Origin: Dokdonella fugitiva
Lineage (GTDB): Bacteria > Pseudomonadota > Gammaproteobacteria > Xanthomonadales > Rhodanobacteraceae
Assembly (NCBI RefSeq): GCF_004342425.1
Contig: NZ_SLWQ01000005.1
Coordinates: forward strand, 253,476 to 285,475
DNA length: 32,000 nucleotides
Reading direction: 5' to 3'
Positions 4,684 to 15,579 of this stretch are shown one piece after another. The stretch's first letter is position 1. Each line of letters starts with the position of its first letter. The translations under genes were made by a program, and so were the position numbers. The notes beneath the pieces are model-generated. The model saw only the letters and a program-made list of their open reading frames with translations. It ran no database searches and had not been told where the DNA came from.

Positions 4684-5151
4684 ATGCCCAATATCGCCAC
4701 GTTCCTCAAAGCCGAAATCACACGCCTCGCACGCAAGGAAATCCGCGGTGAAATCGGTACGCTGCGCAAGACGAGCGCCGCGCACCGCCGCGACATTGCC
4801 GCGCTCAAGCGCGAAATCGCGAACCTGCAGCGGCAGAACAAGCAGCTCTCCAAGCGCGCCGCCGGCGCCTCCCAGGCCGCGACCGCCGAGTCCGGCGAAG
4901 GCGAAGTGAGGAACCGTTTCTCGGCCAAGGGCTTCAAGTCGATGCGCGCGCGCCTCGGCCTCTCGGCCGACCAACTCGCCACCCTGCTCGGCGCGAGCAT
5001 GCAGTCGGTCTACAACTGGGAACACGGCAAGACCGTCCCGCGCGCCAACCAGGTCGCCGCCATCGCCGCGCTGCGCACGATCGGCAAGAAGGAAGCGATG
5101 CGACGCCTCGAAGAGGCACAGGCGGCGGAGAAGCCGTCGCGCAAGCGCTGA
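4684..5151 (+). CDS. XRE-like helix-turn-helix DNA-binding protein with N-terminal coiled-coil region
   Basis: 155-aa ORF. The C-terminal segment LGLSADQLATLLGASMQSVYNWEHGKTVP is a classic HTH_XRE pattern. It sits outside the island repeat, so it is probably core genome. Confidence 0.6.
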   Translation: MPNIATFLKAEITRLARKEIRGEIGTLRKTSAAHRRDIAALKREIANLQRQNKQLSKRAAGASQAATAESGEGEVRNRFSAKGFKSMRARLGLSADQLATLLGASMQSVYNWEHGKTVPRANQVAAIAALRTIGKKEAMRRLEEAQAAEKPSRKR

Positions 5152-5324: not shown

Positions 5325-5338
5325 GTGCCCGGACCCGG
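5325..5338. repeat. distal att direct repeat (copy of tRNA-Leu 3' end)
   Basis: GTGCCCGGACCCGG is identical to 14398-14411. It corresponds to the T-stem 3' strand, acceptor 3' strand, discriminator and first C of CCA. Confidence 0.7.
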
Positions 5339-5341
5339 CGT

Positions 5342-5437
5342 CGCATTGCGCACGCATGTTATTGATTTACAGAGCATCGGCATGCGACAACCCGAGCAGA
5401 TACCCCCGAAAGAACCCCCGCGCTTGGCGCGGGGCGA
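5342..5437. repeat. element-end module, copy L (CGCATT / TGATTTAC / GATACCCC / GAACCCC blocks plus GC hairpin)
   Basis: The four blocks sit at offsets 0, +21, +57 and +70, exactly as in copy M at 7825. They are followed by the hairpin CCCCGCGC-TTG-GCGCGGGG (5416-5434) and GCGGGGCGA. Confidence 0.6.
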
Positions 5438-5555
5438 GCCGCTCCGATGCGGCTCCAAAAGCTACCGTAGTTGGTAGATGCGTCTACCGGCGCTAGTAGC
5501 TCCGCTGTGCTCGAATTTCTCGGCGCCACTTCGGCGCGACGAGAGGATCGACACC

Positions 5556-5921
5556 ATGGACACGAGCACCGCCCTGCGCACCGCGATCGAGCTGCTGACC
5601 CAGGTCGCCGACCGAGCATGCGCGAACGGCGCGATTGCAGCCCTGCCGCCCGACTTCGACGACCGCTACGACGAGTTGACGGACGCGCTGAGCGGAATCG
5701 CTGGACAGCCGCGCGCCGCATGCTCTCAGCCACCGGCGGCCACCAAGTCGACCGCGGCACTCATGACCGCACGCGAAGTCATGGCAGATACGGCCATGAG
5801 CCGCAGCACGCTCTACCGCTTGATCCGCGAGGGGCGCTTTCCTGCGCCGGCGAAGGTCGGCACGATGTCGCGCTGGCACGCAACCGCGGTCGCGGATTGG
5901 AAGGCGCGGCTCTTCGCATGA
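5556..5921 (+). CDS. AlpA-family HTH regulator/excisionase-like protein with ~70-aa N-terminal extension
   Basis: The C-terminal MSRSTLYRLIREGRFPAPAKVGTMSRWHATAVADWK is the AlpA (CP4-57 regulatory) signature. GAGAGGA lies 8 nt upstream of ATG 5556. The stop overlaps the integrase ATG (ATGA at 5918-5921). An alternative start at 5763 would give a 52-aa AlpA-only protein. Confidence 0.7.
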   Translation: MDTSTALRTAIELLTQVADRACANGAIAALPPDFDDRYDELTDALSGIAGQPRAACSQPPAATKSTAALMTAREVMADTAMSRSTLYRLIREGRFPAPAKVGTMSRWHATAVADWKARLFA

Positions 5922-7132
5922 GCTGCCGCCAACTTCACCGACTCACCGCGCGCGCGGTCGCGACCGCGACGACGCCAGGATACATCGCCGACGGCGGCGG
6001 CCTGTATTTGCAGATTACCGCAAGCGGCGCGCGGAGTTGGGTCTTGCGGTTCATGTTGCGCGGTCGCGCGCGCGAAATGGGGCTCGGCTCGGCCACGATG
6101 GTTGGGCTCGCAGAGGCGCGCCAACGCGCGGCGGAGTGCCGACGCCAGCTCGCCGACGGCATCGATCCCATCGACGCCAGAGCGCGCGCACGCGCGCAGA
6201 ACGCTCACACCTTCGAGGCGGTCGCGACGGAGTACATCGATGCGAACGCAGGCGGATGGCGCAGCGCCAAACATGCCGATCAATGGCGGCAGTCGCTCGG
6301 GACGTACGCGTTCCCGGTCATCGGCCGCATGCCGGTTGCGGCGATCGACCTCGCGCACGTGCTCCGCGTGCTGGAGCCTGTCTGGACAACCAAGACAGAG
6401 ACGGCCACGCGCGTGCGCCAGCGCATCGAAGCCGTGCTCGACTACGCTGCGGTGAAGCGGTACCGGGCGGCGGGCAGCGAGAACCCGGCGCGCTGGCGCG
6501 GGCACCTGCAGCGGATCCTCCCCAAGCCGTCCCGCGTGTCGCGCGTGCGGCACATGAGCGCGCTGCACTACAGCGAACTGCCGGCGTTCATGGCCACGCT
6601 ACGCGCGCTGCCGCAGGGCCCGGCCGCGCTGGCGCTGCAGTTCACCATCCTGACCTGCGCGCGAACGGGCGAGGCGCGAGCGGCGACCATGGGCGAGATC
6701 GACGTCGACGCGGCGCTATGGACCGTGCCAGGGTCGCGCATGAAGGCGGGCAGGGAACACGTCGTCCCGCTCTCGGCCGCCGCGCTCGGCGTCGTGCGCG
6801 CGACCGGCGTCACGGAAGGGGCGCTGTTCACCTATCGGCGGGCGCCGATCAGCAACAACGCAATGCTCGCGCTCCTGCGCCGCATGGGTCGCGGCGACAT
6901 CACCGTGCACGGCTTCCGCTCGACCTTCAAGGACTGGGCGACCGAGCAGACCGACTTCCCGACCGACGCGATCGAGATCGCGTTGGCGCACACCGTCGGC
7001 GACAAGACCGAGCAGGCGTATCGGCGCGGCAACCTGCTGGCGAAGCGCCGCGCGCTCGCCGACGCCTGGGCGGCGTACTGTGGGAGCGTCACGCAGCCCG
7101 GGCGATCCCCACCGCGGGATATGCGGTGGTAG
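5918..7132 (+). CDS. int: tyrosine integrase (arm-binding DUF4102-type N-domain plus phage integrase catalytic domain)
   Basis: N-terminus LTARAV..PGYIADGGGLYLQI..SWVLRF..MGLGS, and catalytic motifs ARTGEAR, HGFRSTFKDW and EQAYRRG. Start chosen at ATG 5918. The 5471-5917 extension of the listed ORF overlaps alpA and is rejected. Confidence 0.9.
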   Translation: MSCRQLHRLTARAVATATTPGYIADGGGLYLQITASGARSWVLRFMLRGRAREMGLGSATMVGLAEARQRAAECRRQLADGIDPIDARARARAQNAHTFEAVATEYIDANAGGWRSAKHADQWRQSLGTYAFPVIGRMPVAAIDLAHVLRVLEPVWTTKTETATRVRQRIEAVLDYAAVKRYRAAGSENPARWRGHLQRILPKPSRVSRVRHMSALHYSELPAFMATLRALPQGPAALALQFTILTCARTGEARAATMGEIDVDAALWTVPGSRMKAGREHVVPLSAAALGVVRATGVTEGALFTYRRAPISNNAMLALLRRMGRGDITVHGFRSTFKDWATEQTDFPTDAIEIALAHTVGDKTEQAYRRGNLLAKRRALADAWAAYCGSVTQPGRSPPRDMRW

Positions 7133-7292
7133 CCTTTGGCCGCTCGCACCCGTCCACTACTGGAGAAGTGCCTTGACGACCAAGCCCGCACCGCCGCCGC
7201 CGCGGCAACCGCCTACCCCGCATCCTCGCAATCTGCCGCCATTTCGAACCGTCCCGCCGCCGCCACCGCCGTCGAAGCAGGGCTAGGCTCAA

Positions 7293-7775
7293 ATGCGACC
7301 CGACGAGATGCAGGCGCGAACCTCGACTGAGGCCCGAAACGACCTCATCTACCAGATCCGTTTGCACGAGCTTCACGCTACGCTCTTCCGACGGTTGAAA
7401 TGGTTGGCGTCGCTCGTCTCATTGCTTGCTGGTGCGTCGGCCGTGACGAGTTGGGTTCAATCGCAGCCCGGCGGCGTGTTTGTAGCGGGCTTGGTAGTCA
7501 CGATCACCGGCGTTCTCGACATCCTTGGGCGCTGGGAGGAGCGAGGCGCAGCACATCGCGCGTGGCGCCGCCAATTCGCCGAAATTCTTGCGGAAGCGCC
7601 TGTGCTATCGGACGAGGATCTGCATGCGGCCTACGTGCGGGCCGAGGCGAGCGTCGACGACACGCTACGAAGCTTGGAGCGCGTTGCGTACAACGACGCC
7701 ATGCGCTCGCTCGGCCTGTATACGCGGCGGGTGTGGGAATGGCCATCGAACTGGTTAATGCGCTTGTTCGTGTAG
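7293..7775 (+). CDS. small two-TM protein with SLATT-like architecture (tentative)
   Basis: 160 aa, built as an N-terminal helix, two adjacent TM helices (WLASLVSLLAGASAVTSWV and GVFVAGLVVTITGVLDILG) and a helical C-terminus. This layout resembles SLATT/DUF4231 2TM effectors. The assignment is by eye only. Confidence 0.5.
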   Translation: MRPDEMQARTSTEARNDLIYQIRLHELHATLFRRLKWLASLVSLLAGASAVTSWVQSQPGGVFVAGLVVTITGVLDILGRWEERGAAHRAWRRQFAEILAEAPVLSDEDLHAAYVRAEASVDDTLRSLERVAYNDAMRSLGLYTRRVWEWPSNWLMRLFV

Positions 7776-7824
7776 GGAGCGGGAGCATTGATCCAAAGCG
7801 ATATTCGATGCCGCATGCAGCACC

Positions 7825-7930
7825 CGCATTCACGCGCCAACGTGCTGATTTACCTGCCAGCTTGCTGACGCAAGATTGAGCGATACCCCGACCTGAACCC
7901 CAAAAAAGCGCCCCGCGTGAGGCGGGGCGA
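7825..7930. repeat. element-end module, copy M
   Basis: CGCATT 7825, TGATTTAC 7846, GATACCCC 7882 and GAACCCC 7895 have the same spacing as copy L. They are followed by a GC hairpin ending in GCGGGGCGA. Confidence 0.6.
7901..7929 (-). terminator. rho-independent terminator of the minus-strand island operon
   Basis: On the minus strand, stem CGCCCCGC / GCGGGGCG with a 5-nt loop is followed by TTTTTT (A-run 7902-7907 on plus). It lies 26 nt downstream of the 7955 stop. Confidence 0.75.
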
Positions 7931-7954
7931 ATGGCTGGCGCACGCGGGAACGGA

Positions 7955-8695
7955 TCACGCCGCGCGGATCTCGAGACTCTTCTTCGGCGCGAGCGCATCG
8001 ATCGCCTCGACGTACTGCGGGACGACCGTACGAAGCCACGCGAGACGCTCCTGCGCTTCGCTGCGCAGCGTCGCCTCGCGCGGGTTGGCCCGTGCCATCG
8101 CGTTCGCCCAGGCGGTCGGCAGCGTCGCCGCGAGCACGCCGGGCAACGGCATGGGCGAACGCATGAGCGCGACGAGCGCGCGCGGATGCTTCCCGTCCAT
8201 AAGTTCGTGCGCGAGCCTTGCCTGCGCATCGGGCGACATCGCGCGCCAGAGGTCGCGCACCTCGCGATCCTCCGCCGCACCGACGGCATCGTTCATCGCC
8301 AGCGGCGGCGGCGAGCATGATTTCGCGTCGGCCTCCGCGAACTCGTCGATGCGCTTCATCGCCTCTACGCGCGCGCCCTCGATCTCGTTGCGAGCCGCCG
8401 CGGCGATGGCTCGACGCTGCTCGGCCTTCCATGCGTCGGTGCGCGTGGCGTCGGCCTCCACGTCGGCAATGCGCTTCGCGGCGCTCGCGGCGATGCGCAG
8501 CACCTTCGCTGCGTGGTTGAACTCGGCGTGGTCCGTATTGGCATGAAGCGGCGCGCGCAGCGCAACAACGCCGCCAGTCGCAAGGCGGAGAGCGGATATC
8601 CCGTCGGGCTCGCCCCGCTCGACCTGGCCCCAGATCGGGGTAACGCCGAGTTCGGAAAAGCTCTCCGCAAAGCGGAGTGATTCTGCGTGGTTCAT
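7955..8695 (-). CDS. hypothetical protein, 246 aa, Ala/Arg-rich and largely helical
   Basis: Last ORF of the island operon. Its ATG overlaps the upstream stop (ATGA at 8692-8695) and it is followed by a terminator. No motif recognised. Confidence 0.55.
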   Translation of the reverse strand: MNHAESLRFAESFSELGVTPIWGQVERGEPDGISALRLATGGVVALRAPLHANTDHAEFNHAAKVLRIAASAAKRIADVEADATRTDAWKAEQRRAIAAAARNEIEGARVEAMKRIDEFAEADAKSCSPPPLAMNDAVGAAEDREVRDLWRAMSPDAQARLAHELMDGKHPRALVALMRSPMPLPGVLAATLPTAWANAMARANPREATLRSEAQERLAWLRTVVPQYVEAIDALAPKKSLEIRAA

Positions 8696-8901
8696 CGCGA
8701 GCCCCCGATGCGCTGCGGGTCGTGCTTCGGCGCGTTGCTGTGGTCGTGGTTTCCGCGGTCGTGCGCGGCGGCATTGCCGGTAGCGTCGACCGGGCGCATG
8801 CCCTCCGCGACGAGGCCGGCGCCGGGATTCGATGCGGGCGCGGCCGGCGCGTGCGCGGCGCTTGCGCCGTTCACGAGTGCCTGAGGATTGAAACCTTTCA
8901 T
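8692..8901 (-). CDS. hypothetical small low-complexity protein, 69 aa
   Basis: ATG at 8901 with AGAGG about 11 nt upstream, and a 4-nt overlap with the next gene. Composition is Ala/Pro/His-rich, so coding status is uncertain. Confidence 0.35.
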   Translation of the reverse strand: MKGFNPQALVNGASAAHAPAAPASNPGAGLVAEGMRPVDATGNAAAHDRGNHDHSNAPKHDPQRIGGSR

Positions 8902-8952
8902 GGGTGCGTGCCTCTTTTGTCGTTCGCCGCGAACCGCGCGGCAGCGGGTTTG

Positions 8953-9147
8953 CTATACAGGCCTCGCCGTGCGCGGCGTGAGCGTCAGCGCAATGATCGG
9001 CGCGCGTGGATTGGCCGCTTTGGCCGCGGCGAGGTCGCGCTCGCTTGGGGAGTACAGGACAACGGCGGACTGCGGCAGATCGCGAGTCGCGCGCACGCGC
9101 TCGAGGCGCCGCTCGATCCGCGCAAGCCGGGAGCGCATGCCCCTCAT
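8953..9147 (-). CDS. hypothetical small protein, 64 aa, N-terminal RLARIERRLE motif
   Basis: ATGA overlap with the upstream ORF at 9144-9147. Its N-terminal motif is shared with the neighbouring 100-aa ORF. Confidence 0.4.
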   Translation of the reverse strand: MRGMRSRLARIERRLERVRATRDLPQSAVVLYSPSERDLAAAKAANPRAPIIALTLTPRTARPV

Positions 9148-9446
9148 GCCGACGCCCTCCGCTCGAGGTCAGCGAGTTCGATCTGCTGATCGCGCGCCAG
9201 GCGCGACCACGTGTCGGCGTCGATCACGGCCGGCACGAGCAGGCCACGTCCGACGATGTGCCCGTCCGCCAGCCGGCGCGCCGACGCAGCGTGCGCGGGC
9301 ATGCCGCGCCGCTCGCACGCGGCGGCCTCGCGCAGCACGTCTCGGCGCACGCCTTCGGGCACAGGCGCGCATTCGGCGCCGCCATGTCGCGCGCGCTTCG
9401 CTTCCAGCGCGCCGAGTCGGCGAATCAGGTCACGACGCATCGGCAT
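9144..9446 (-). CDS. hypothetical protein, 100 aa, N-terminal RRLGALEAKR motif
   Basis: GGAGGGAA lies immediately upstream of ATG 9446. There is a 17-nt overlap with the upstream DUF5681 ORF. Confidence 0.45.
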   Translation of the reverse strand: MPMRRDLIRRLGALEAKRARHGGAECAPVPEGVRRDVLREAAACERRGMPAHAASARRLADGHIVGRGLLVPAVIDADTWSRLARDQQIELADLERRASA

Positions 9447-9852
9447 TTCCCTCCAGCTCGGCCAGCCGGCGCTCGATCTCGTCCGCCTGGCGAATGTCCG
9501 AGCAACCGCGCAGTGCGGCGATCAGCTCGGCCGCGACGTCGGGCGCCAGTTCGCCAGCCGCGGCGGCGCGCACGAGCGCCTGCGCGGCCTCTGCCGGCGT
9601 CGTGGCGTTCGCAGCCGACTCGACCACGATGGGCTCGCGCGTCGCGCGCAGGGGCGGCGCCACGCGCGAGAGCACGAGCGCAATCGCGGCAACGTCGCCG
9701 TTGCGCGCGCGGTGAAGCAACGCCTGCAGGACGTCAGGCATCGCGCCATCGAACGCTTGGCGAATGCGCGAACGCTTGTCGACGATGCCGCGCGGCCGCC
9801 CCTTCGGGTTGCCAGACTGCCCCGGCTTGAAGGGCCTTCCACGCTCAGCCAT
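9430..9852 (-). CDS. DUF5681-type protein, candidate small-terminase-like (TerS-like)
   Basis: The N-terminal GRPFKPGQSGNPKGRPRG is the DUF5681 signature as I recall it, a family often seen at the terS position in phages and GTA-like elements. Start moved to ATG 9852 (GGAGCAGCAC upstream) rather than the listed GTG 9867. Confidence 0.6.
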   Translation of the reverse strand: MAERGRPFKPGQSGNPKGRPRGIVDKRSRIRQAFDGAMPDVLQALLHRARNGDVAAIALVLSRVAPPLRATREPIVVESAANATTPAEAAQALVRAAAAGELAPDVAAELIAALRGCSDIRQADEIERRLAELEGNADAS

Positions 9853-10474
9853 GTGCTGCTCCCTCACTGTTTATATCAGCGCCGCCCGGCGTGTGTTCGG
9901 CGTCACGGATTCCGTACGCTTCGCTAGCAGCGGCTCTGATCTCAGTCACTGTGTCGTAGAGGAGGCCGCCCTGAGCCATCAGGGAATCAAACTCAGCACG
10001 ATTGCGTGCGATCGCATCGCGCTGCTCCTGCGGTGCGCAGTCGAAAAAAACGTTCGCAGGAATTTCCTCGATAAACTTCGCATCGTGACGCTCAAACGCG
10101 ATTTCGGCTTCGGCTCGAACGTGATCTCCCACTGAGTATTTCGCGACAACAAACTCGTGTAGGGGTTCGCCTTCGCAGGCGCAAGGGAAGAATTTGCTCA
10201 GCATCACTATCGACGGCGATGCGAAGATCCTCTCGGGAACTAGCGCCATGGTTTGCCAAGCGCTGAATACGGCGGGCTTCTCCCGAACATCGAATGCATA
10301 CACCCCCCAACCGGTCTGGAGGTAACAAAGCAACAAGGCGACGCGGTCACAAGCATTCGACTGCCAGGGCCCGAGCCTGGACACGCGGTGTTCCAAGCGA
10401 TACGCGTTCCTCATCCTGCCCAAACCCCGAATGAAAACGGCGTTCCTCATGGCTTGCTGGTGCTGCTCAGACAT
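9845..10474 (-). CDS. orphan hypothetical protein, 209 aa, in a lower-GC patch (candidate accessory cargo)
   Basis: GGGAG lies 8 nt upstream of ATG 10474. The 60-nt lines at 10081, 10141 and 10201 count 53, 55 and 57% GC, against 73% for the line at 11041. No motif recognised. Confidence 0.6.
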   Translation of the reverse strand: MSEQHQQAMRNAVFIRGLGRMRNAYRLEHRVSRLGPWQSNACDRVALLLCYLQTGWGVYAFDVREKPAVFSAWQTMALVPERIFASPSIVMLSKFFPCACEGEPLHEFVVAKYSVGDHVRAEAEIAFERHDAKFIEEIPANVFFDCAPQEQRDAIARNRAEFDSLMAQGGLLYDTVTEIRAAASEAYGIRDAEHTPGGADINSEGAAHG

Positions 10475-10525
10475 CTCATCGGCTCCCGAAAACTGCGCTG
10501 CTCCAAATCCCCATACCCCTAGGGA

Positions 10526-10594
10526 TTAATTCGGCGCACATGCGCGCGCCGATTAACCCAATGCGCCTAACCCGTATTCGGCGCATTCGGCGCA
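10526..10594. promoter_or_regulatory. iteron-like repeat cluster / palindromic operator at the 3' end of the ATPase gene (candidate ori)
   Basis: ATTCGGCGCA occurs at 10529-10538, 10576-10585 and 10585-10594. There is an imperfect palindrome TTAATTCGGCGC (10526-10537) / GCGCCGATTAA (10546-10556). ATGCGC recurs three times, and the palindrome CCCTAGGG lies at 10517-10524. Confidence 0.45.
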
Positions 10595-11763
10595 TGCGCC
10601 CGGATCGCGTACCGCCGCCGCACCTTTCGCTGCGGGGTCAGGTACTCCTCGCGCACGAGCTCGCCGGAATCCTCGAGGCGCGCCAGGGCGGCCCAGAAAC
10701 GCGGCTTGGCCCGCAGCGCCGAAGGGAAGCCGGGGAGGTCTACGGCGGTCGTGTACGTCGTGGCGCAGCCGGTGCGGTGGCAGCCGATGACGTCGCCGCG
10801 CACGATGGCTGCGCGCAGGCAGTGCAGCAGCAACAAGTCGTCGCCGCCGGTGGCGTCCCCGGCAGCCGCCGGCAGCGGGACGCCTGCCGCGTTGACGCGA
10901 AGCGGGATCGAGTCAACGCGGCGGCACAGGTTCGCCTTCTCGTGCCGCAGCTCGAGCGCGCCGTCGCTGTCGACGAGCGCGAGGCGCGAGCGCGCGCTGT
11001 TGTGCCACGCGGTGCTTCCGCTGAACGTGTTTCCGCTCGCCCCGTGCCGCGCAGCGTGCTTGTCGACGTGCACGAGCAACAACACCGCGGCGCCGGCGTC
11101 GCGCCCGATCTTGGCGAGCGCGCGGACGAACGTGCGGACCTGCCGGCGATCGTTCTCGTTCGCGTCGTACGCGTCGGATGCATTGTCGATCACGACGAGC
11201 GCCGCATCGGCGGCCGCATCGCGAACCTGGTGCATCGTCGAGGTCGGCTCGAGCACGGCACGCCCGGCGATGACGAGTTCGTACGCGAGCGCGGTTGCAT
11301 CGGCCTCGGTTCCGTCGAGGATGATGAGACTGCGCGCGACGGCGAACGCGTCGAGCTGGTAGGCGTCGCAGATCGCGCGCAGGCGCCAGCGGACAAGCTC
11401 GCCGGGATCTTCCAGCGAGACGAACACCGCGCGCCCCTGCGCGCACGCGAGTGAGGCCCACGGCACGCCGGCGGCAACATGGGCAGCGATCGCGAGCGCG
11501 AGCGTGCTCTTGCCCGTGCCGCCGTGCCCGCCGAGCAGCGTGACGTGTCCGCGCGGAACGATGCGGTCGACGACGAACTCGGGCGCCTGCAGGGTCGCGG
11601 CGGCGAGATCGCCCACCTCGACGACGCGCAGCGATGCCTCGACGGTCATCGCCGGCGCCGGGCGCAACCATCGGCGCGCATTGTCGAGCCGAGCGAGGTC
11701 GCGTTCAGACAGTTCGTCGATGTCGCGCAGGCGTCGCGGCAACAACTCGGGAGCGGCGCTCAT
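10567..11763 (-). CDS. RepA/AAA_25-type (RecA-fold) replicative ATPase/helicase-like protein
   Basis: Walker A GGHGGTGKST and Walker B-like ALVVIDNASD. Start set at ATG 11763, which overlaps the upstream stop (ATGA). The Arg-rich 11764-12042 extension is rejected. Confidence 0.8.
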   Translation of the reverse strand: MSAAPELLPRRLRDIDELSERDLARLDNARRWLRPAPAMTVEASLRVVEVGDLAAATLQAPEFVVDRIVPRGHVTLLGGHGGTGKSTLALAIAAHVAAGVPWASLACAQGRAVFVSLEDPGELVRWRLRAICDAYQLDAFAVARSLIILDGTEADATALAYELVIAGRAVLEPTSTMHQVRDAAADAALVVIDNASDAYDANENDRRQVRTFVRALAKIGRDAGAAVLLLVHVDKHAARHGASGNTFSGSTAWHNSARSRLALVDSDGALELRHEKANLCRRVDSIPLRVNAAGVPLPAAAGDATGGDDLLLLHCLRAAIVRGDVIGCHRTGCATTYTTAVDLPGFPSALRAKPRFWAALARLEDSGELVREEYLTPQRKVRRRYAIRAHAPNAPNTG

Positions 11764-12194
11764 GCGGTCAGTACCTCGCGCGCGCATTGGATGCGGTCGA
11801 TCGCCTCGCGCAGCCGCGCGATGTCGTCGGCGTCGAACAAGGCACCATCTTCGATGGCCTTGGCAGCCGCGAGCGCGACGGCGCTCTCGCGTGCGAGCAC
11901 GCGCACCGCCGCGGACCAATCCGCATCGCGCGCAGCGCGGCGGCGCTCCTCTCGCGCCATTGGCGAGTGATCGCCCAGGCGGGCAGCGAAGAGGTCCGCG
12001 ACGCTGAGCCCGACAGCGCCCACGACGTCGGCGACCGGGCATCCACTGAAACAGTGGGCCAACACGCGTCCGTCATCACCGACGGCGATCGACAGCGAGG
12101 CGGTGCGATCGTCATGCGCCGGGCAACGCGCTGTCCAGCCGTTACCGCTGCGGCGGACGCCGATCAAGCGCGACAGCAGTGCGTCGACGCTCAA
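11760..12194 (-). CDS. primase-type zinc-finger protein (CHC2-like), no catalytic primase domain evident
   Basis: The motif WTARCPAHDDRTASLSI..HCFSGC is a typical primase/helicase-loader zinc ribbon. A TTG start overlaps the upstream stop (TTGA at 12191-12194). Confidence 0.65.
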   Translation of the reverse strand: MSVDALLSRLIGVRRSGNGWTARCPAHDDRTASLSIAVGDDGRVLAHCFSGCPVADVVGAVGLSVADLFAARLGDHSPMAREERRRAARDADWSAAVRVLARESAVALAAAKAIEDGALFDADDIARLREAIDRIQCAREVLTA

Positions 12195-12628
12195 GCGAAG
12201 TGCCTGCGGCTCTCGCGGCGATCCGCGACGCGCCGATGGTCAGCGAGGGCGCGCAGCAGCCCGTCAGCCGCGGCCTTCCACTCGGGGATGCGCGCGAGGC
12301 CACGGTCCGACCCCAGCCGGCGCACGGCAACGCGAAGCTGCGTCAGGCGGCGCGACGACGCCGGATAGCGCAGCGCGCTGAGCGCGTCGCATATGGTGCG
12401 CATGCTCTCGACATCGGCGGCGATGACCGCGGCGCGCAATGCGTCGCGCACGTCGGAGAGCAGGGCGGCAACGGCGCGATCGGTCTTGCCGTTCGGGAGA
12501 CGGACATGCGCAGCCAGGGCGACAGAGGCGCGGCCGAGCTCTTGCGACGCGCGGTGATGCGCGAACAGCGCGCGAAACGCGGCCTCGAGCGCTGCCGCGC
12601 GATCTGCGGAGCGAAGCGGCGCGCTCAT
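12191..12628 (-). CDS. hypothetical helical protein, 145 aa
   Basis: Start set at ATG 12628, overlapping the alpA stop (ATGA at 12625-12628). No motif recognised. Confidence 0.5.
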   Translation of the reverse strand: MSAPLRSADRAAALEAAFRALFAHHRASQELGRASVALAAHVRLPNGKTDRAVAALLSDVRDALRAAVIAADVESMRTICDALSALRYPASSRRLTQLRVAVRRLGSDRGLARIPEWKAAADGLLRALADHRRVADRRESRRHFA

Positions 12629-12849
12629 GCGGCCGCCTTGCGTGCACGCGACGCCGCAACGCGGTCGGCGATCCATGCACACACTTCCGCTTCACGCCAA
12701 GCGGCGCACCGCTCCGAAATCTTGATCGGTGCCGGAAACTTGCGCTGCGCGACGAGCGCGTAGGTCTGTGACCGGCCCAAGCCGGTGAGGTGCATGACCT
12801 CGCGCAGCCGAATGAGGCGCTGGGTGGCAAGCTCTTGCATGGGGCGCAC
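12625..12849 (-). CDS. alpA: AlpA-family transcriptional regulator/excisionase-like protein
   Basis: 74 aa. LIRLREVMHLTGLGRSQTYALVAQRKFPAPIKISERCAAWREAEVCAWI is the AlpA signature. Confidence 0.8.
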   Translation of the reverse strand: MRPMQELATQRLIRLREVMHLTGLGRSQTYALVAQRKFPAPIKISERCAAWREAEVCAWIADRVAASRARKAAA

Positions 12850-12888
12850 CTTGTTGGGATCAGGTGCGTCCAGAATCGTCCGGCGCGC

Positions 12889-13018
12889 GTTGACACTCCA
12901 TCGCGCCGAATCAGCGGCCTTGCAGCTATCGGATCAACGACTTGCGCTGTAGCTCGGCACGCGCGATCTGCGCAAGGCCTTGATTTTCCGTGTTGACAGT
13001 CCTCAACGATCCGTCAAC
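12889..13018. promoter_or_regulatory. repeated GTTGACA(C/G)TCC boxes in the int-alpA intergenic region (candidate operator)
   Basis: GTTGACACTCC at 12889-12899 and GTTGACAGTCC at 12992-13002 match at 10 of 11 positions. An inverted GTCAAC lies at 13013-18, 15 nt from the second box. Confidence 0.35.
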
Positions 13019-14225
13019 GCGCTGCGCGCATGGGCACGACGTTCGAACCCGAGCGCAGCGCATCGAGGTAGTCGGCCCACGCCTGCATCATCCTGATGCG
13101 CTCCTTGAGATACATCGCGCGGTTGTAGACGGCGCGCACCTTGTTTCGCTCGGCGTGCGCGAGCTGGCGCTCGATCACGTCAGGCGACCACCCCATTTCG
13201 TTCAAACGCGTCGAGGCCATCGCGCGGAACCCGTGCGCCGTCATCGTGTCGCCGTCGTAGCCGAGCCGGCGCAGAGCAGCCGTGATGGTGTTCTCGCTCA
13301 TGGGCCGGTCAGGCGTCCGCAAGCTCGGGAACACGTAGCGGCGCGATCCCGTGAGCGGTTGAATCGCACGCAGAATCGCGACCGCCTGCGTAGCGAGCGG
13401 CACCACGTGCCCCTCGCGCATCTTCATCCGGCTGGCCGGGATGCGCCATTCGTGCGCGTCGAGGTCGACCTCCGCCCACTCCATCGCTCGCAGCTCGCCG
13501 GGACGCACGAACAGCAGCGCCGAAAGCTTGAGCGCAGCGGCCGTCGTCGGCTGTCCGATGTAGCCGTCGAGCGCGCGGAGCAGCTCGGCGACCTTCGAGG
13601 GATCCGTTATCGCAGCATGCGATGTCGCGACGACGGGCGCGAGCGCGCCGCGTAGGTCGGCAGTCGGGTCGCGCATCGCGCGTCCGGTCGCGACCGCGTA
13701 GCGGAATACCTGGCTCGCCTTCTGGCGCGCGCGATGCGCGGTCTCGATCGTCCCAGCGGACTCGATGCGCCGGAGTGCGGCCAGCACATCCGGCGCGGCG
13801 ATCGCCGCAATGGGCATCGCGTGAATCGGCGCGAGCAACCCGAGCAGCCATTGCGCCTTCGCGCGCGTGACCGGCGCGAGCGCGTCCTTCTGCCGCGCGA
13901 GCCACTCGTCGGCGATCGCCCGAAAGCTTTCCGCTGCCCCGACTCGAGCGGCGACCTTGCGAGCGCGCCGCGCCTGCGATGGGTCGACACCCTCGCGCAA
14001 CAATGCGCGCGCCTCGTCGCGACGCTGGCGCGCTTCGGCGAGCGAGACCTCGGGGTATGCGCCGAACGAGAGCAGCAGCTCCTTTCCGGCGAAACGGTAC
14101 TTCATGCGCCACAGACGCGAGCCGCTCTGCCTCACGAGCAGAAACAGGCCGCCACCGTCGAACAGCTTCCCAGGTGCCGCGCTCTTGATCGCGAGCGCCG
14201 TCAGCTTTCCCATGCGCGCCGTCAC
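13014..14225 (-). CDS. int: P4/CP4-57-type tyrosine integrase
   Basis: N-terminus KLTALAIKSAAPGKLFDGGGLFLLV..RLWRMKYRFAGKE..FGAYPEVSLAEAR, and catalytic motifs VRPGELR, HGFRAMAST and RAVYNRA. It directly abuts the tRNA-Leu 3' end. The listed start is GTG 14225, with an alternative ATG at 14213. Confidence 0.9.
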   Translation of the reverse strand: MTARMGKLTALAIKSAAPGKLFDGGGLFLLVRQSGSRLWRMKYRFAGKELLLSFGAYPEVSLAEARQRRDEARALLREGVDPSQARRARKVAARVGAAESFRAIADEWLARQKDALAPVTRAKAQWLLGLLAPIHAMPIAAIAAPDVLAALRRIESAGTIETAHRARQKASQVFRYAVATGRAMRDPTADLRGALAPVVATSHAAITDPSKVAELLRALDGYIGQPTTAAALKLSALLFVRPGELRAMEWAEVDLDAHEWRIPASRMKMREGHVVPLATQAVAILRAIQPLTGSRRYVFPSLRTPDRPMSENTITAALRRLGYDGDTMTAHGFRAMASTRLNEMGWSPDVIERQLAHAERNKVRAVYNRAMYLKERIRMMQAWADYLDALRSGSNVVPMRAAR

Positions 14226-14229
14226 GTGC

Positions 14230-14281
14230 GTACCCCCGCAGACAGGGCCAACGCAGGCCCGATACCCCGGACGATACCCCC
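14230..14281. repeat. three (G/A)TACCCC boxes between int and the tRNA (candidate integrase arm-type sites)
   Basis: GTACCCCC at 14230-14237, GATACCCC at 14261-14268 and GATACCCC at 14273-14280. They have the same orientation as the boxes at 5399 and 7882. Confidence 0.4.
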
Positions 14282-14395
14282 AAGGCTCGCCGGATTCAAC
14301 CGAACGCTCGCGGACCCTACTGGACGAAATACCGCTCGATTTATGGCCTTTTCACGCAGACGCCGGACGTTGGCGGACCGTTGTGGAGGCTGCTT

Positions 14396-14482
14396 TGGTG
14401 CCCGGACCCGGACTCGAACCGGGATGACCTTGCGGTCGAGGGATTTTAAGTCCCTTGCGGCTACCGATTTCGCCATCCGGGC
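14396..14482 (-). tRNA. tRNA-Leu (anticodon UAA), type II with long variable arm
   Basis: The reverse complement folds as a cloverleaf. Acceptor is GCCCGGA/TCCGGGC, anticodon arm AGGGA-CTTAAAA-TCCCT, T arm CCCGG-TTCGAGT-CCGGG, and CCA is encoded. Confidence 0.9.
14398..14411. repeat. proximal att direct repeat within the tRNA-Leu 3' end
   Basis: GTGCCCGGACCCGG, identical to 5325-5338. Confidence 0.7.
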
Positions 14483-14589
14483 AGCGCACGAGGCGATGGT
14501 AGCGTCTGCGCGCCTGGATCGCGCGCGCCGGGATGCCGCGCCTCGGGACATGGCGCCGGCCCGTGCGCGGGCTGGCGGATCGCGGGCAC

Positions 14590-14613
14590 AAAAAAACCCG
14601 CATCGCTGCGGGT
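14590..14613 (-). terminator. terminator-like hairpin between tRNA-Cys and tRNA-Leu
   Basis: Minus-strand stem ACCCGCA / TGCGGGT with a 4-nt loop, followed by TTTTTTT (A-run 14590-14596 on plus). Confidence 0.55.
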
Positions 14614-14650
14614 CCTTTTGGCCACCGGCATCGCGGGTGCGCGGCGCGGA

Positions 14651-14724
14651 TGGAGGCTTGGGTCGGAATCGAACCGGCGTACGCGGATTTGCAGTCCGCT
14701 GCATGACCACTCTGCCACCAAGCC
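14651..14724 (-). tRNA. tRNA-Cys (anticodon GCA)
   Basis: Acceptor GGCTTGG/CCAAGCC and anticodon arm GCGGA-CTGCAAA-TCCGC. The T arm has one C-A mismatch. CCA is encoded. Confidence 0.85.
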
Positions 14725-14762
14725 GTGGCTGTCGCGTGCCGTGCATCTTGCGACGTCCGGCA

Positions 14763-14793
14763 GAAAAACGAAACCCCGGCGTGCCGGGGTTTC
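14763..14793 (-). terminator. terminator-like hairpin between tRNA-Gly and tRNA-Cys
   Basis: An 11-bp perfect stem GAAACCCCGGC / GCCGGGGTTTC (14770-14793), followed on the minus strand by GTTTTTC. Confidence 0.5.
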
Positions 14794-14801
14794 ATCGAAA
14801 C

Positions 14802-14877
<76 letters not shown>

Positions 14878-14888
14878 GTGGGACGCGC

Positions 14889-14916
14889 ATAATACGGTTT
14901 GGCGCGCAGGTGTCAA
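14889..14916 (-). promoter_or_regulatory. sigma70-type promoter of the tRNA cluster
   Basis: On the minus strand, TTGACA (14916-14911), a 16-nt spacer and TATTAT (14894-14889). A GC-rich discriminator GCGCGTCCC follows, just upstream of the tRNA-Gly 5' end. Confidence 0.7.
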
Positions 14917-14997
14917 GCGTGGATTTGCGATCATCGATCGTCGCACGTGCAAAAGAGCGGTCGTCCCGGTCGCGCGCTTCATGTACGGCCCCGCGCG

Positions 14998-15579
14998 TCA
15001 GCGCTGCTGGCGCAGGATCGGCCACGCCGCGCGCACGTACAGCATCCCCGACCAGATCGTGAGTCCCGCCGCGATCACCAGCAGCCCCTCGCCGACGTGG
15101 AACAGGCGCAGGCCTTCGAGGTCGTGCTGGTAGAGCAGCACGACGATCGCGACGATCTGCATCGCGGTCTTGATCTTGCCGATCGCCGCCACGCGTACGG
15201 TCGCGCGCTCGCCGATCTCCGCCATCCATTCGCGCAGTGCCGAGATGCTGATCTCGCGCCCGACGATGACCGCGCTGGTGACCGCCATCAGCGGCGTCGG
15301 GTTTTCCTGCACGAGCAGGAACAGCGTGATCGCGACCATGAGCTTGTCGGCGACCGGGTCGAGGAACGCGCCGAACGCCGAACCCATGTTCCAGCGCCGG
15401 GCGACCCAGCCGTCGAGCCAGTCGGTGATCGCGGCCGCGATGAAGATGAGCGCGGCGGCGACGTTGGCGCCGTGGAACGGCGCGTAGAACGCGATCACCA
15501 TCACCGGCAGGAGCAGGATGCGGAACAGGGTAAGCGCGGTCGGGATCGTGATATGCATCGGTCGGTCGGGTGGTGTCAT
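14998..15579 (-). CDS. pgsA: CDP-diacylglycerol--glycerol-3-phosphate 3-phosphatidyltransferase
   Basis: IPTALTLFRILLLP and DWLDGWVARRWN..FGAFLDPVADK form the CDP-alcohol phosphatidyltransferase motif. ATG 15579 overlaps the uvrC stop (ATGA). ATG 15558 (MHITIPT) aligns better with the E. coli N-terminus. Confidence 0.9.
   Translation of the reverse strand: MTPPDRPMHITIPTALTLFRILLLPVMVIAFYAPFHGANVAAALIFIAAAITDWLDGWVARRWNMGSAFGAFLDPVADKLMVAITLFLLVQENPTPLMAVTSAVIVGREISISALREWMAEIGERATVRVAAIGKIKTAMQIVAIVVLLYQHDLEGLRLFHVGEGLLVIAAGLTIWSGMLYVRAAWPILRQQR

Follow-up and report, generated by a model that had tools for sequence, protein, structure and literature searches.

Introduction

A compact array of integration, regulation and replication genes lies beside a tRNA-Leu gene in a 32,000-nt stretch of the Dokdonella fugitiva contig NZ_SLWQ01000005.1 (hereafter the window, within which all coordinates are given). 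The question raised by this locus is whether the array is a phage satellite and, if it is, how it relates to the satellite families already described. Phage satellites shape gene transfer and phage resistance, and their current detection uses few marker sets, which are centred on Enterobacterales, Firmicutes and Vibrio. An earlier sequence-only reading of the window had proposed a satellite-like element of a possibly betaproteobacterial lineage. The host is in fact a gammaproteobacterium (Lysobacterales, Rhodanobacteraceae), and both phage-inducible chromosomal islands (PICIs) and capsid-forming PICIs (cfPICIs) have been described in Gammaproteobacteria, including Xanthomonas and Pseudomonas (PMC10085698). 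The suggestion of an undescribed betaproteobacterial lineage can therefore not be upheld in that form. Three proteins of the array (AAA_25, DUF5681 and the 246-aa protein) show 100% identity to NCBI entries for D. fugitiva. On balance we favour the reading that the island is a helper-dependent, PICI-like phage satellite. We do so because its limits are marked by a significant repeat of the tRNA, its relatives are mobile, it has a satellite backbone, a gene of the DUF5681 family stands in the position of a small terminase (TerS), its modules are swapped among relatives, and there is published precedent.

Limits of the island

Next to the island, three tRNA genes, tRNA-Gly, tRNA-Cys and finally tRNA-Leu(taa), come after uvrC and pgsA. 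The features that define its limits are as follows.

14396-14482, minus strand: tRNA-Leu(taa), the integration target, with its 3' end toward the island (ARAGORN; Rfam tRNA, 54.7 bits)
14398-14411, no strand: proximal direct repeat (core of the attachment site, att), GTGCCCGGACCCGG, within the tRNA 3' end; exact 14-nt match to 5325-5338
5325-5338, no strand: distal direct repeat, an exact 14-nt copy of the tRNA-Leu 3' end and the single such copy

When the 12 kb flank was simulated 3000 times with a first-order Markov model, matches of at least 14 nt to the final 30 nt of the tRNA appeared by chance with P of about 0.0017. No second copy was found with a 28-nt probe from the tRNA-Leu 3' end, and the Rfam search returned three tRNAs and nothing else. 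The island, as delimited by these repeats, is taken to span 5325-14411 (9.09 kb). It extends beyond 7808 to 5325 because the tRNA repeat is found there and because a cargo gene in the added part, orf160, occupies the same position in two relatives (loci L176 and L177; loci of relatives are designated by L and a number). The limits of 7808-14411 given in the sequence-only reading were thus too narrow, and a second alpA-integrase pair was missed together with orf160. A 10-nt match, CGATACCCCG, at 14260 and 7881 was considered as another att site and rejected as too weak.

Two features were noted near the distal repeat. Just within it lies a strong terminator-like hairpin on the minus strand (5416-5434; eight G-C pairs and a T-run), with no minus-strand gene upstream and no Rfam match. 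Immediately outside it, a plus-strand gene (4684-5151) stands between the island and two paired host genes, DUF1800/DUF1501. It encodes an XRE / HTH_31 protein that has a coiled coil at its N-terminus, and it could be a host gene or the relic of an older insertion.

The minus-strand operon

All eleven minus-strand genes that had been listed for the array were recovered, with a strong terminator at the end.

13014-14225, minus strand: int1, P4-type tyrosine integrase (Arm-DNA-bind_3, Phage_int_M, Phage_integrase)
12625-12849, minus strand: alpA1, AlpA-family helix-turn-helix (HTH) protein, regulator or excisionase (PF05930, E 3.8e-17)
12191-12628, minus strand: orf145, 145 aa, overlapping each neighbour by 4 nt
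11760-12194, minus strand: CHC2 primase-type zinc-finger protein, 144 aa (Zn_ribbon_DnaG, E 8e-6, residues 4-52)
10567-11763, minus strand: RepA-like AAA_25 / DnaB-type ATPase, replication helicase or initiator (AAA_25, E 1.9e-34), called the helicase below
9845-10474, minus strand: orf209, of low GC content (0.57 vs about 0.70)
9430-9852, minus strand: DUF5681 protein (PF18932, E 3e-11), with motif GQSGNPKGRPRG and N-terminus MAERGRPFKPGQSGNPKGRPRG
9144-9440, minus strand: orf98, a small open reading frame (ORF) of the conserved set that follows DUF5681
8953-9147, minus strand: orf64, small ORF (gene call; ORFs of 60-70 aa at the equivalent position in relatives)
8692-8901, minus strand: orf69, small ORF (gene call)
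7955-8695, minus strand: orf246, 246 aa, member of an uncharacterised family linked to DUF5681
7899-7929, minus strand: intrinsic terminator closing the operon, eight G-C pairs followed by CTTTTTT

Neighbouring genes overlap by 4-17 nt at six junctions, which is compatible with a single operon. Integrases 49-57% identical to int1 adjoin the tRNA in sister islands. The zinc-finger protein, which is conserved in 21 sister loci, covers positions 6-78 of the 772 positions of the primase family phrog_6088, that is, the N-terminal part only, and it has no TOPRIM or catalytic domain. The earlier description of the element as capable of autonomous replication was an overstatement, as neither a catalytic primase nor a polymerase domain accompanies the zinc finger and the helicase-type ATPase. 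For orf145 there was no Pfam, PHROG or PADLOC match, and orf98, orf64, orf69 and orf246 likewise matched no family. The C-terminal 40 aa of orf98 are nevertheless 54% identical in L176 and L177 and 42% identical in L002.

When every ORF was compared with Pfam and PHROGs, no capsid, portal, tail, large-terminase or lysis match was obtained, in agreement with the absence of structural genes reported before. The same scans of the window ORFs detected no holin, portal or connector gene and no relaxase, coupling protein or origin-of-transfer (oriT)-type protein. PADLOC gave no match for any cargo or unclassified protein of the island.

Sister islands with the same helicase backbone

Among 8000 candidates scored, 905 homologues of the helicase were found at E<=1e-10, many of them as fusions with a PriCT_2, Prim-Pol or RepB primase domain. 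A scan of helicase loci, restricted to one genome per species, gave 80 loci, and genes for an integrase, AlpA and the zinc-finger protein are seen repeatedly upstream of their helicase. Thirty-three further loci are islands bounded by a 14-53-nt copy of the adjacent tRNA. They measure 4.9-15.3 kb and use about 20 different tRNA genes. The sequence-only reading would have been contradicted by a cassette confined to complete prophages; the relatives are repeat-bounded islands instead.

The closest relatives are of similar size. In L176 and L177 the helicase is 61% identical, and the islands lie in tRNA-Lys between 42-nt repeats (8.36 kb). In L178 it is 69% identical, with a 14-nt repeat in tRNA-Ser and a length of 9.36 kb. 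L002 is also inserted in tRNA-Lys; L002, L176 and L177 range from 7.5 to 8.4 kb, and the repeats of these relatives from 14 to 42 nt. In L176, L177 and L178 the core operon is followed by opposite-strand cargo up to the distal repeat.

The slot behind the helicase was surveyed by a family scan of 136 ORFs that measure at least 100 aa and lie downstream of this gene in repeat-bounded islands. The ORFs were picked by a gene caller based on GC content at third codon positions (GC3), which is imperfect and was used for picking only. The families found in the slot are listed here.

Post-helicase slot, Phage_capsid: 6 ORFs
Post-helicase slot, Gp13-like capsid: 3 ORFs
Post-helicase slot, Phage_capsid_4: 1 ORF
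Post-helicase slot, Prohead protease: 3 ORFs
Post-helicase slot, Terminase_4 (small subunit): 3 ORFs
Post-helicase slot, Sf6-type small terminase: 2 ORFs
Post-helicase slot, Terminase_2 (small subunit): 1 ORF
Post-helicase slot, large terminase (TerL): 3 ORFs
Post-helicase slot, DUF5681: 3 ORFs

A major capsid protein is thus encoded in at least 10 of the 33 sister islands. Individual checks confirmed capsid genes in L004, L007, L010, L029, L041 and L054, a protease-capsid fusion in L035, and a capsid gene together with TerL in L026, L042 and L043; L003 gave a weak, sub-threshold match to a Nu1-type small terminase. The capsid or terminase islands checked in this way are 7.8-11.4 kb long. The sister islands are far too small for phages, a pattern that marks PICI and reduced cfPICI satellites. 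The window element shares their backbone and has DUF5681 at the point that TerS or capsid genes occupy in its sisters.

A gene of 126-158 aa was seen to overlap the integrase stop codon by 4 nt in three relatives (L176, 8534-8914; L178, 1677-2153; L082, 8060-8506). It is absent from the window element.

The DUF5681 protein

The island-type DUF5681 protein had 345 homologues at E<=0.001, all of 130-180 aa. Eight further genomic contexts, from Gamma- and Betaproteobacteria and one Desulfovibrionales genome, were all small integrase/replication islands between host genes, and no structural genes were present in these eight. Their common gene order opens with the integrase and, where recognisable, AlpA/HTH_17; the replication gene comes next and then DUF5681, often preceded by the gene for a protein of some 230 aa, with two to four small ORFs behind it. 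The replication module itself varies. At least six different ones were found, namely CHC2 with AAA_25, PriCT_2-AAA_25, a long AAA_25, DUF3987 (L085, L321), Prim-Pol with DUF927, a P4-type primase (L096) and an O-like module. Across islands with such swapped modules, DUF5681 remains accompanied by small ORFs and usually by the 246-aa family. In L009 (11290-12291) two tandem DUF5681 genes are followed by a gene of the 246-aa family.

In phages the domain occupies a packaging position. A scan of IMG/VR gave 80 viral loci, in most of which a DUF5681-domain ORF of 100-140 aa is followed by an ORF of 390-550 aa. Of 35 ORFs directly downstream, at least 21 encode large terminases (21 match Terminase_6N and 17 match Terminase_3). 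L133 and L108 contain near full-length island-type homologues with TerL downstream. All 34 of the 34 phage DUF5681 proteins compared by hmmsearch matched the island-type profile, mostly at positions 7-75. The association of the GNPxGRP motif with small-terminase positions, proposed from the sequence alone, was therefore borne out in phages. ParB-methylase genes are common just upstream of phage packaging modules, and such genes precede DUF5681 in three viral loci. A DUF5681 protein has also been reported in the virion proteome of a Salmonella phage (PMC8954984).

The motif by itself is less informative. In Felixounavirus and other Ounavirinae (L095, Escherichia phage PHB11, 4974-6842; L094, Pectobacterium phage Wc4), a small protein that has the GNPxGRP motif only stands first in a rightward operon, and the next gene in PHB11 codes for a DUF2828/DUF7788 protein and not for a terminase. 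The motif alone is not diagnostic of the TerS position because this gene neighbour is not a terminase.

Full-length DUF5681 was also found on two circular plasmids. One, of Moellerella wisconsensis (pW18-2-d, NZ_CP093253, 8.7 kb; L092), carries an HK97-type capsid gene, and the other, of Shigella flexneri (NZ_CP055032, 13.3 kb; L091), carries tape-measure and Dit genes. Each has an integrase and a primase, the primases being DUF5906 in one and VirE with toprim in the other. From their gene content, these plasmids resemble satellites, or mini phage-plasmids, that are maintained as episomes.

In the AlphaFold model of the window protein (predicted local distance difference test score, pLDDT, 86) a disordered N-terminus bears the motif, residues 26-64 form three short helices, and a long C-terminal helix takes up residues 104-139. 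There was no canonical TerS match in Pfam, and a tblastn search against phages at 1e-3 yielded no match. We regard DUF5681 as a candidate small-terminase-type DNA-recognition protein on the basis of gene position, protein size, a plausible DNA-binding N-terminus and a helix suited to oligomerisation, and not of a demonstrated fold.

The 246-aa family

An exhaustive HMMER search assigned 211 cluster representatives of 200-290 aa to the family of orf246, for which a word-index search had given one homologue only. Its members adjoin DUF5681, on either side, in L002, L009, L082-L084, L085-L087, L089-L090 and L176-L178. The AlphaFold2 model of orf246 (pLDDT 94, predicted template-modelling score 0.85) combines a small sheet at the N-terminus with a long hairpin of helices and a helix bundle. 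A comparison of this product with scaffold, Sid and Psu-like proteins had been suggested. Neither the model nor the sequence gave a significant match to any solved structure: Foldseek against the PDB returned only weak matches to long helical proteins (ClyA, E 0.17), and the sequence profile had no match among PDB sequences. By its gene neighbourhoods, the family is regarded as a conserved partner of DUF5681 that, among the loci fetched, is found only in islands.

It is possible that DUF5681 and the 246-aa family together form a new packaging-hijack module that defines widespread minimalist satellites, with DUF5681 as a new structural class of small terminase. We put this forward tentatively, as a proposal that falls short of probable. 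Such satellites may occur in Desulfovibrionales as well as in Gamma- and Betaproteobacteria; they would combine freely with replication modules of at least six kinds and with many tRNA sites, and current satellite finders would miss them.

A proposed satellite cycle

Gene content, the mobility signature and the comparative context were read directly from the loci, and from them we infer each step of the following life cycle. A helper phage would switch on the alpA-led operon. The integrase and AlpA would excise the island between the two 14-nt repeats, and the zinc-finger protein and the AAA_25 helicase would start replication of the circle, with primase and polymerase supplied by the host or the helper. 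The DUF5681 protein might bind island DNA through its N-terminal GNPxGRP motif and three-helix domain, oligomerise through its long C-terminal helix and hand the DNA over to the large terminase of the helper, and the island DNA would then enter helper capsids. The product of orf246 and the small ORFs may be part of the hijacking module. In this scheme orf209, orf160 and the alpA2-int2 pair (described below) would be cargo or the remains of a second element.

Several results weigh against a satellite. We identified no helper phage, and there were no virion-derived reads or circular contigs; terminal repeats were looked for in all the IMG/VR and metagenome contigs fetched and occurred in none. 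The IMG/VR islands that have this helicase lack DUF5681 and orf246, and the orf246 family was found in 0 of the 140 IMG/VR loci fetched, so that it is not tied to virion biology. No catalytic primase is encoded by the window element. The C-terminal half of the island-type DUF5681 protein is mostly missing from the phage proteins. The fold comparison with TerS structures, which had been suggested as a check, brought no significant match to a solved fold, TerS or other (Foldseek against the PDB, best E 1.0). Matches of the model in BFVD were only to uncharacterised or DUF5681 phage proteins, and neither the island-type nor the phage-type profile had a relative among PDB sequences. SatelliteFinder probably would not call the window element, because it has no canonical TerS or capsid-modifying gene. 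The satellite idea thus gained comparative support from the small islands, the sisters with capsid and TerS genes and the DUF5681-TerL linkage, and gained nothing from the fold.

The nine-mer repeats and orf209

10529-10593, no strand: clustered 9-mer GCGCCGAAT, with three copies in direct orientation and a fourth that is inverted and has one mismatch

Across the 32-kb window GCGCCGAAT has only three further exact copies, and its local clustering exceeds chance. Two of the clustered copies fall within the helicase gene, at its 3' end and among its final codons. The gap between the helicase and DUF5681 genes is only 26-104 nt in L002, L176 and L178, where orf209 is absent. The repeats thus travel with the low-GC orf209 insertion. 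The cluster is a candidate operator or origin, and the repeats cannot be called the origin of the family because the closest relatives have the short gap and no orf209. What had been described as an iteron-like cluster is therefore locally non-random; it is also small, and the call of an origin is weakened by the lack of the spacer in those relatives. The low GC content of orf209, noted in the sequence-only reading, was confirmed. This gene gave a weak match to phrog_1106 and none in a search against phages, and it is best described as a putative cargo insertion between the helicase and DUF5681 genes.

The distal region: one element or two

7293-7775, plus strand: orf160, cargo gene convergent with the operon (phrog_11791, E 1.6e-15; two predicted membrane helices)
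5556-5921, plus strand: alpA2, AlpA / HTH_17 protein (PF05930, E 3e-9, HTH_17), with a 4-nt overlap with the int2 start (a xis-int-like pair)
5918-7132, plus strand: int2, second P4-type tyrosine integrase, apparently intact (Pfam; 34% identical to int1)

Copies of orf160 that are 81% identical are found at the same position in L176 (13180-13659) and L177 (5911-6390), in elements whose core genes share only 39-61% identity. Since its identity is far above that of the core genes, orf160 looks like cargo recently exchanged at a fixed hotspot.

The presence of two integrases could mean that the island consists of two tandem elements, one of the int1 type (about 7.8-14.4 kb) and a stripped remnant of the int2 type with alpA2, int2 and perhaps orf160. 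The repeat at 5325 would then be the outer att site of the remnant, and a middle att copy would have been lost; such a structure is compatible with either a satellite or a non-satellite lifestyle. The two integrases are only 34% identical, and each occupies the position usual for its type in sister islands: int2-type integrases stand at the tRNA-distal repeat in L035, L038, L059, L064 and L178, and an int1-type integrase adjoins the tRNA in L028. This placement suggests a fusion of two tandem elements, and the strong terminator at 7909-7929 divides the two parts. However, no third att-like copy was found between 7132 and 7955 even with up to 3 mismatches allowed, orf160 stands in the same position in relatives with a single integrase, and the total of 9.1 kb is the size of single relatives (8.4-9.4 kb). 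We regard the tandem structure as a serious possibility, and a single element as the likelier one.

Discussion

Alternatives to a satellite lifestyle

The alternative that survives best is a small integrative element of a non-satellite kind, plasmid-like or mobilisable, with conjugative helpers, vesicles or transformation as its means of transfer. On that reading the roles of the DUF5681 and 246-aa proteins would lie in maintenance, in regulation or in DNA handling of the relaxosome type, and not in packaging. Such an element would account for the lack of a structural link between either protein and terminases or capsid proteins, and for the failure of the 246-aa family to appear in any of the 140 viral loci. 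Small circular plasmids do bear full-length DUF5681 homologues, and one virome contig with DUF5681 also has a Mob_Pre gene. Yet those plasmids hold phage capsid or tail genes and are typed as non-mobilisable, and the scans of the window element with Pfam and PHROGs revealed no relaxase, coupling protein or oriT-type protein. The DUF5681 domain is, moreover, tightly linked to large terminases in phages, and sister islands of the same backbone hold capsid and terminase genes. We therefore consider this explanation unlikely, though it deserves to be kept in view.

A defence role has less in its favour. The module of DUF5681, small ORFs and the 246-aa protein might be an anti-phage defence or exclusion system on an integrative island, and such islands do bear defence cargo. 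L088, of Pseudomonas frederiksbergensis, contains genes for Vsr, a Dcm methylase and the Eco29kI restriction enzyme (12266-14542), with Abi_2 across the integrase, and L176 has a PIN-domain pair in its distal cargo region (14183-15453). Satellites are themselves known as defence carriers (PMC10085698, PMC10803314). But recognisable defence genes lie in the variable distal region, whereas the module belongs to the core operon beside the replication genes. As PADLOC matched none of the cargo proteins and the DUF5681 domain is a gene of the phage packaging region, this explanation is improbable.

A decayed prophage end is hardly credible: complete phages do have DUF5681-domain genes beside large terminases, but att repeats bound an island of only 9.1 kb, all of its ORFs are intact and translationally coupled, and the eight further contexts, like every repeat-delimited relative, are small islands between host genes.

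If the island is a satellite, as we favour, then the DUF5681 gene and the 246-aa family beside an integrase, alpA and a replication gene provide a search handle, with which many small islands now overlooked by the available tools would come to light in environmental Proteobacteria. DUF5681 would gain a function as a small-terminase-type DNA-recognition protein, and the well-folded 246-aa family would become a candidate for a factor that interferes with the helper. Should it prove otherwise, the island is still a tidy example of a modular family that targets tRNA genes.

Comparison with known satellite families

The closest resemblance is to PICIs of the EcCICFT073 type. They share with the window element an integrase at one end, AlpA, a primase/replicase-type module, a small-terminase-type candidate, the lack of tail, lysis and portal genes, a size of about 10 kb, a same-direction operon and a gammaproteobacterial host. 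The capsid gene of Type A PICIs has its counterpart in sister islands of the same backbone and not in the window element. In terms of the PICI components defined for SatelliteFinder (PMC10085698), the integrase (present twice) and the AlpA regulator were found, and the primase-replicase component may be represented by the CHC2 zinc finger and the AAA_25 helicase, which has homologues fused to PriCT_2 or Prim-Pol. Three of the five core components are at least partly present (integrase, regulator and primase-replicase); TerS is so by position only, and the capsid-morphogenesis component is absent. Unlike PICIs, the window element has a TerS candidate, DUF5681, that lies outside the recognised TerS families, a replication module split into a CHC2 zinc finger and an AAA_25 helicase, no recognisable capsid-morphogenesis, Ppi or Rpp gene, the 246-aa family linked to DUF5681, and two integrases.

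The PICMIs of Vibrionaceae (phage-inducible chromosomal minimalist islands; PMC10803314) have a similarly minimal gene set, without capsid-remodelling genes, of an integrase, alpA, one unclassified gene and a replication gene. The position of orf145 between alpA and the replication genes is that of PICMI up1. The gene whose 4-nt overlap takes in the integrase stop codon in relatives, and which the window element lacks, recalls the essential iolg, and the DUF3987 primase of the PICMI type occurs in some DUF5681 islands (L085, L321). However, PICMIs are inserted downstream of fis, use a DUF3987 or DUF5906 primase and have no TerS-like gene, whereas the window element lies in a tRNA-Leu gene of Dokdonella with AAA_25, a CHC2 zinc finger and the module of DUF5681 and the 246-aa protein. 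With the wrong primase type and integration site, it is not a PICMI member.

With cfPICIs, which have been reported in Xanthomonas, Pseudomonas and Bordetella (PMC10085698), the element shares the integrase, regulator and replication half, and its sister islands encode a major capsid protein and a protease, with TerL as well in three of them. It differs in having no capsid, portal, connector or TerL gene and in its length of 9 kb, as against a cfPICI median of 14 kb. P4-like elements, which are found almost entirely in Enterobacterales (PMC10085698), likewise have a P4-type integrase with an arm-binding domain at a tRNA, AlpA, a primase-type zinc finger, a helicase and no structural genes. The Pfam and PHROGs scans of the window element gave no Psu, Sid, Delta or Epsilon and no primase-helicase of the P4 alpha type. 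It is a member of neither the P4-like nor the cfPICI family. What seems to be new in it is the putative hijack module of DUF5681 and the 246-aa protein, together with the wide modular distribution of that module.

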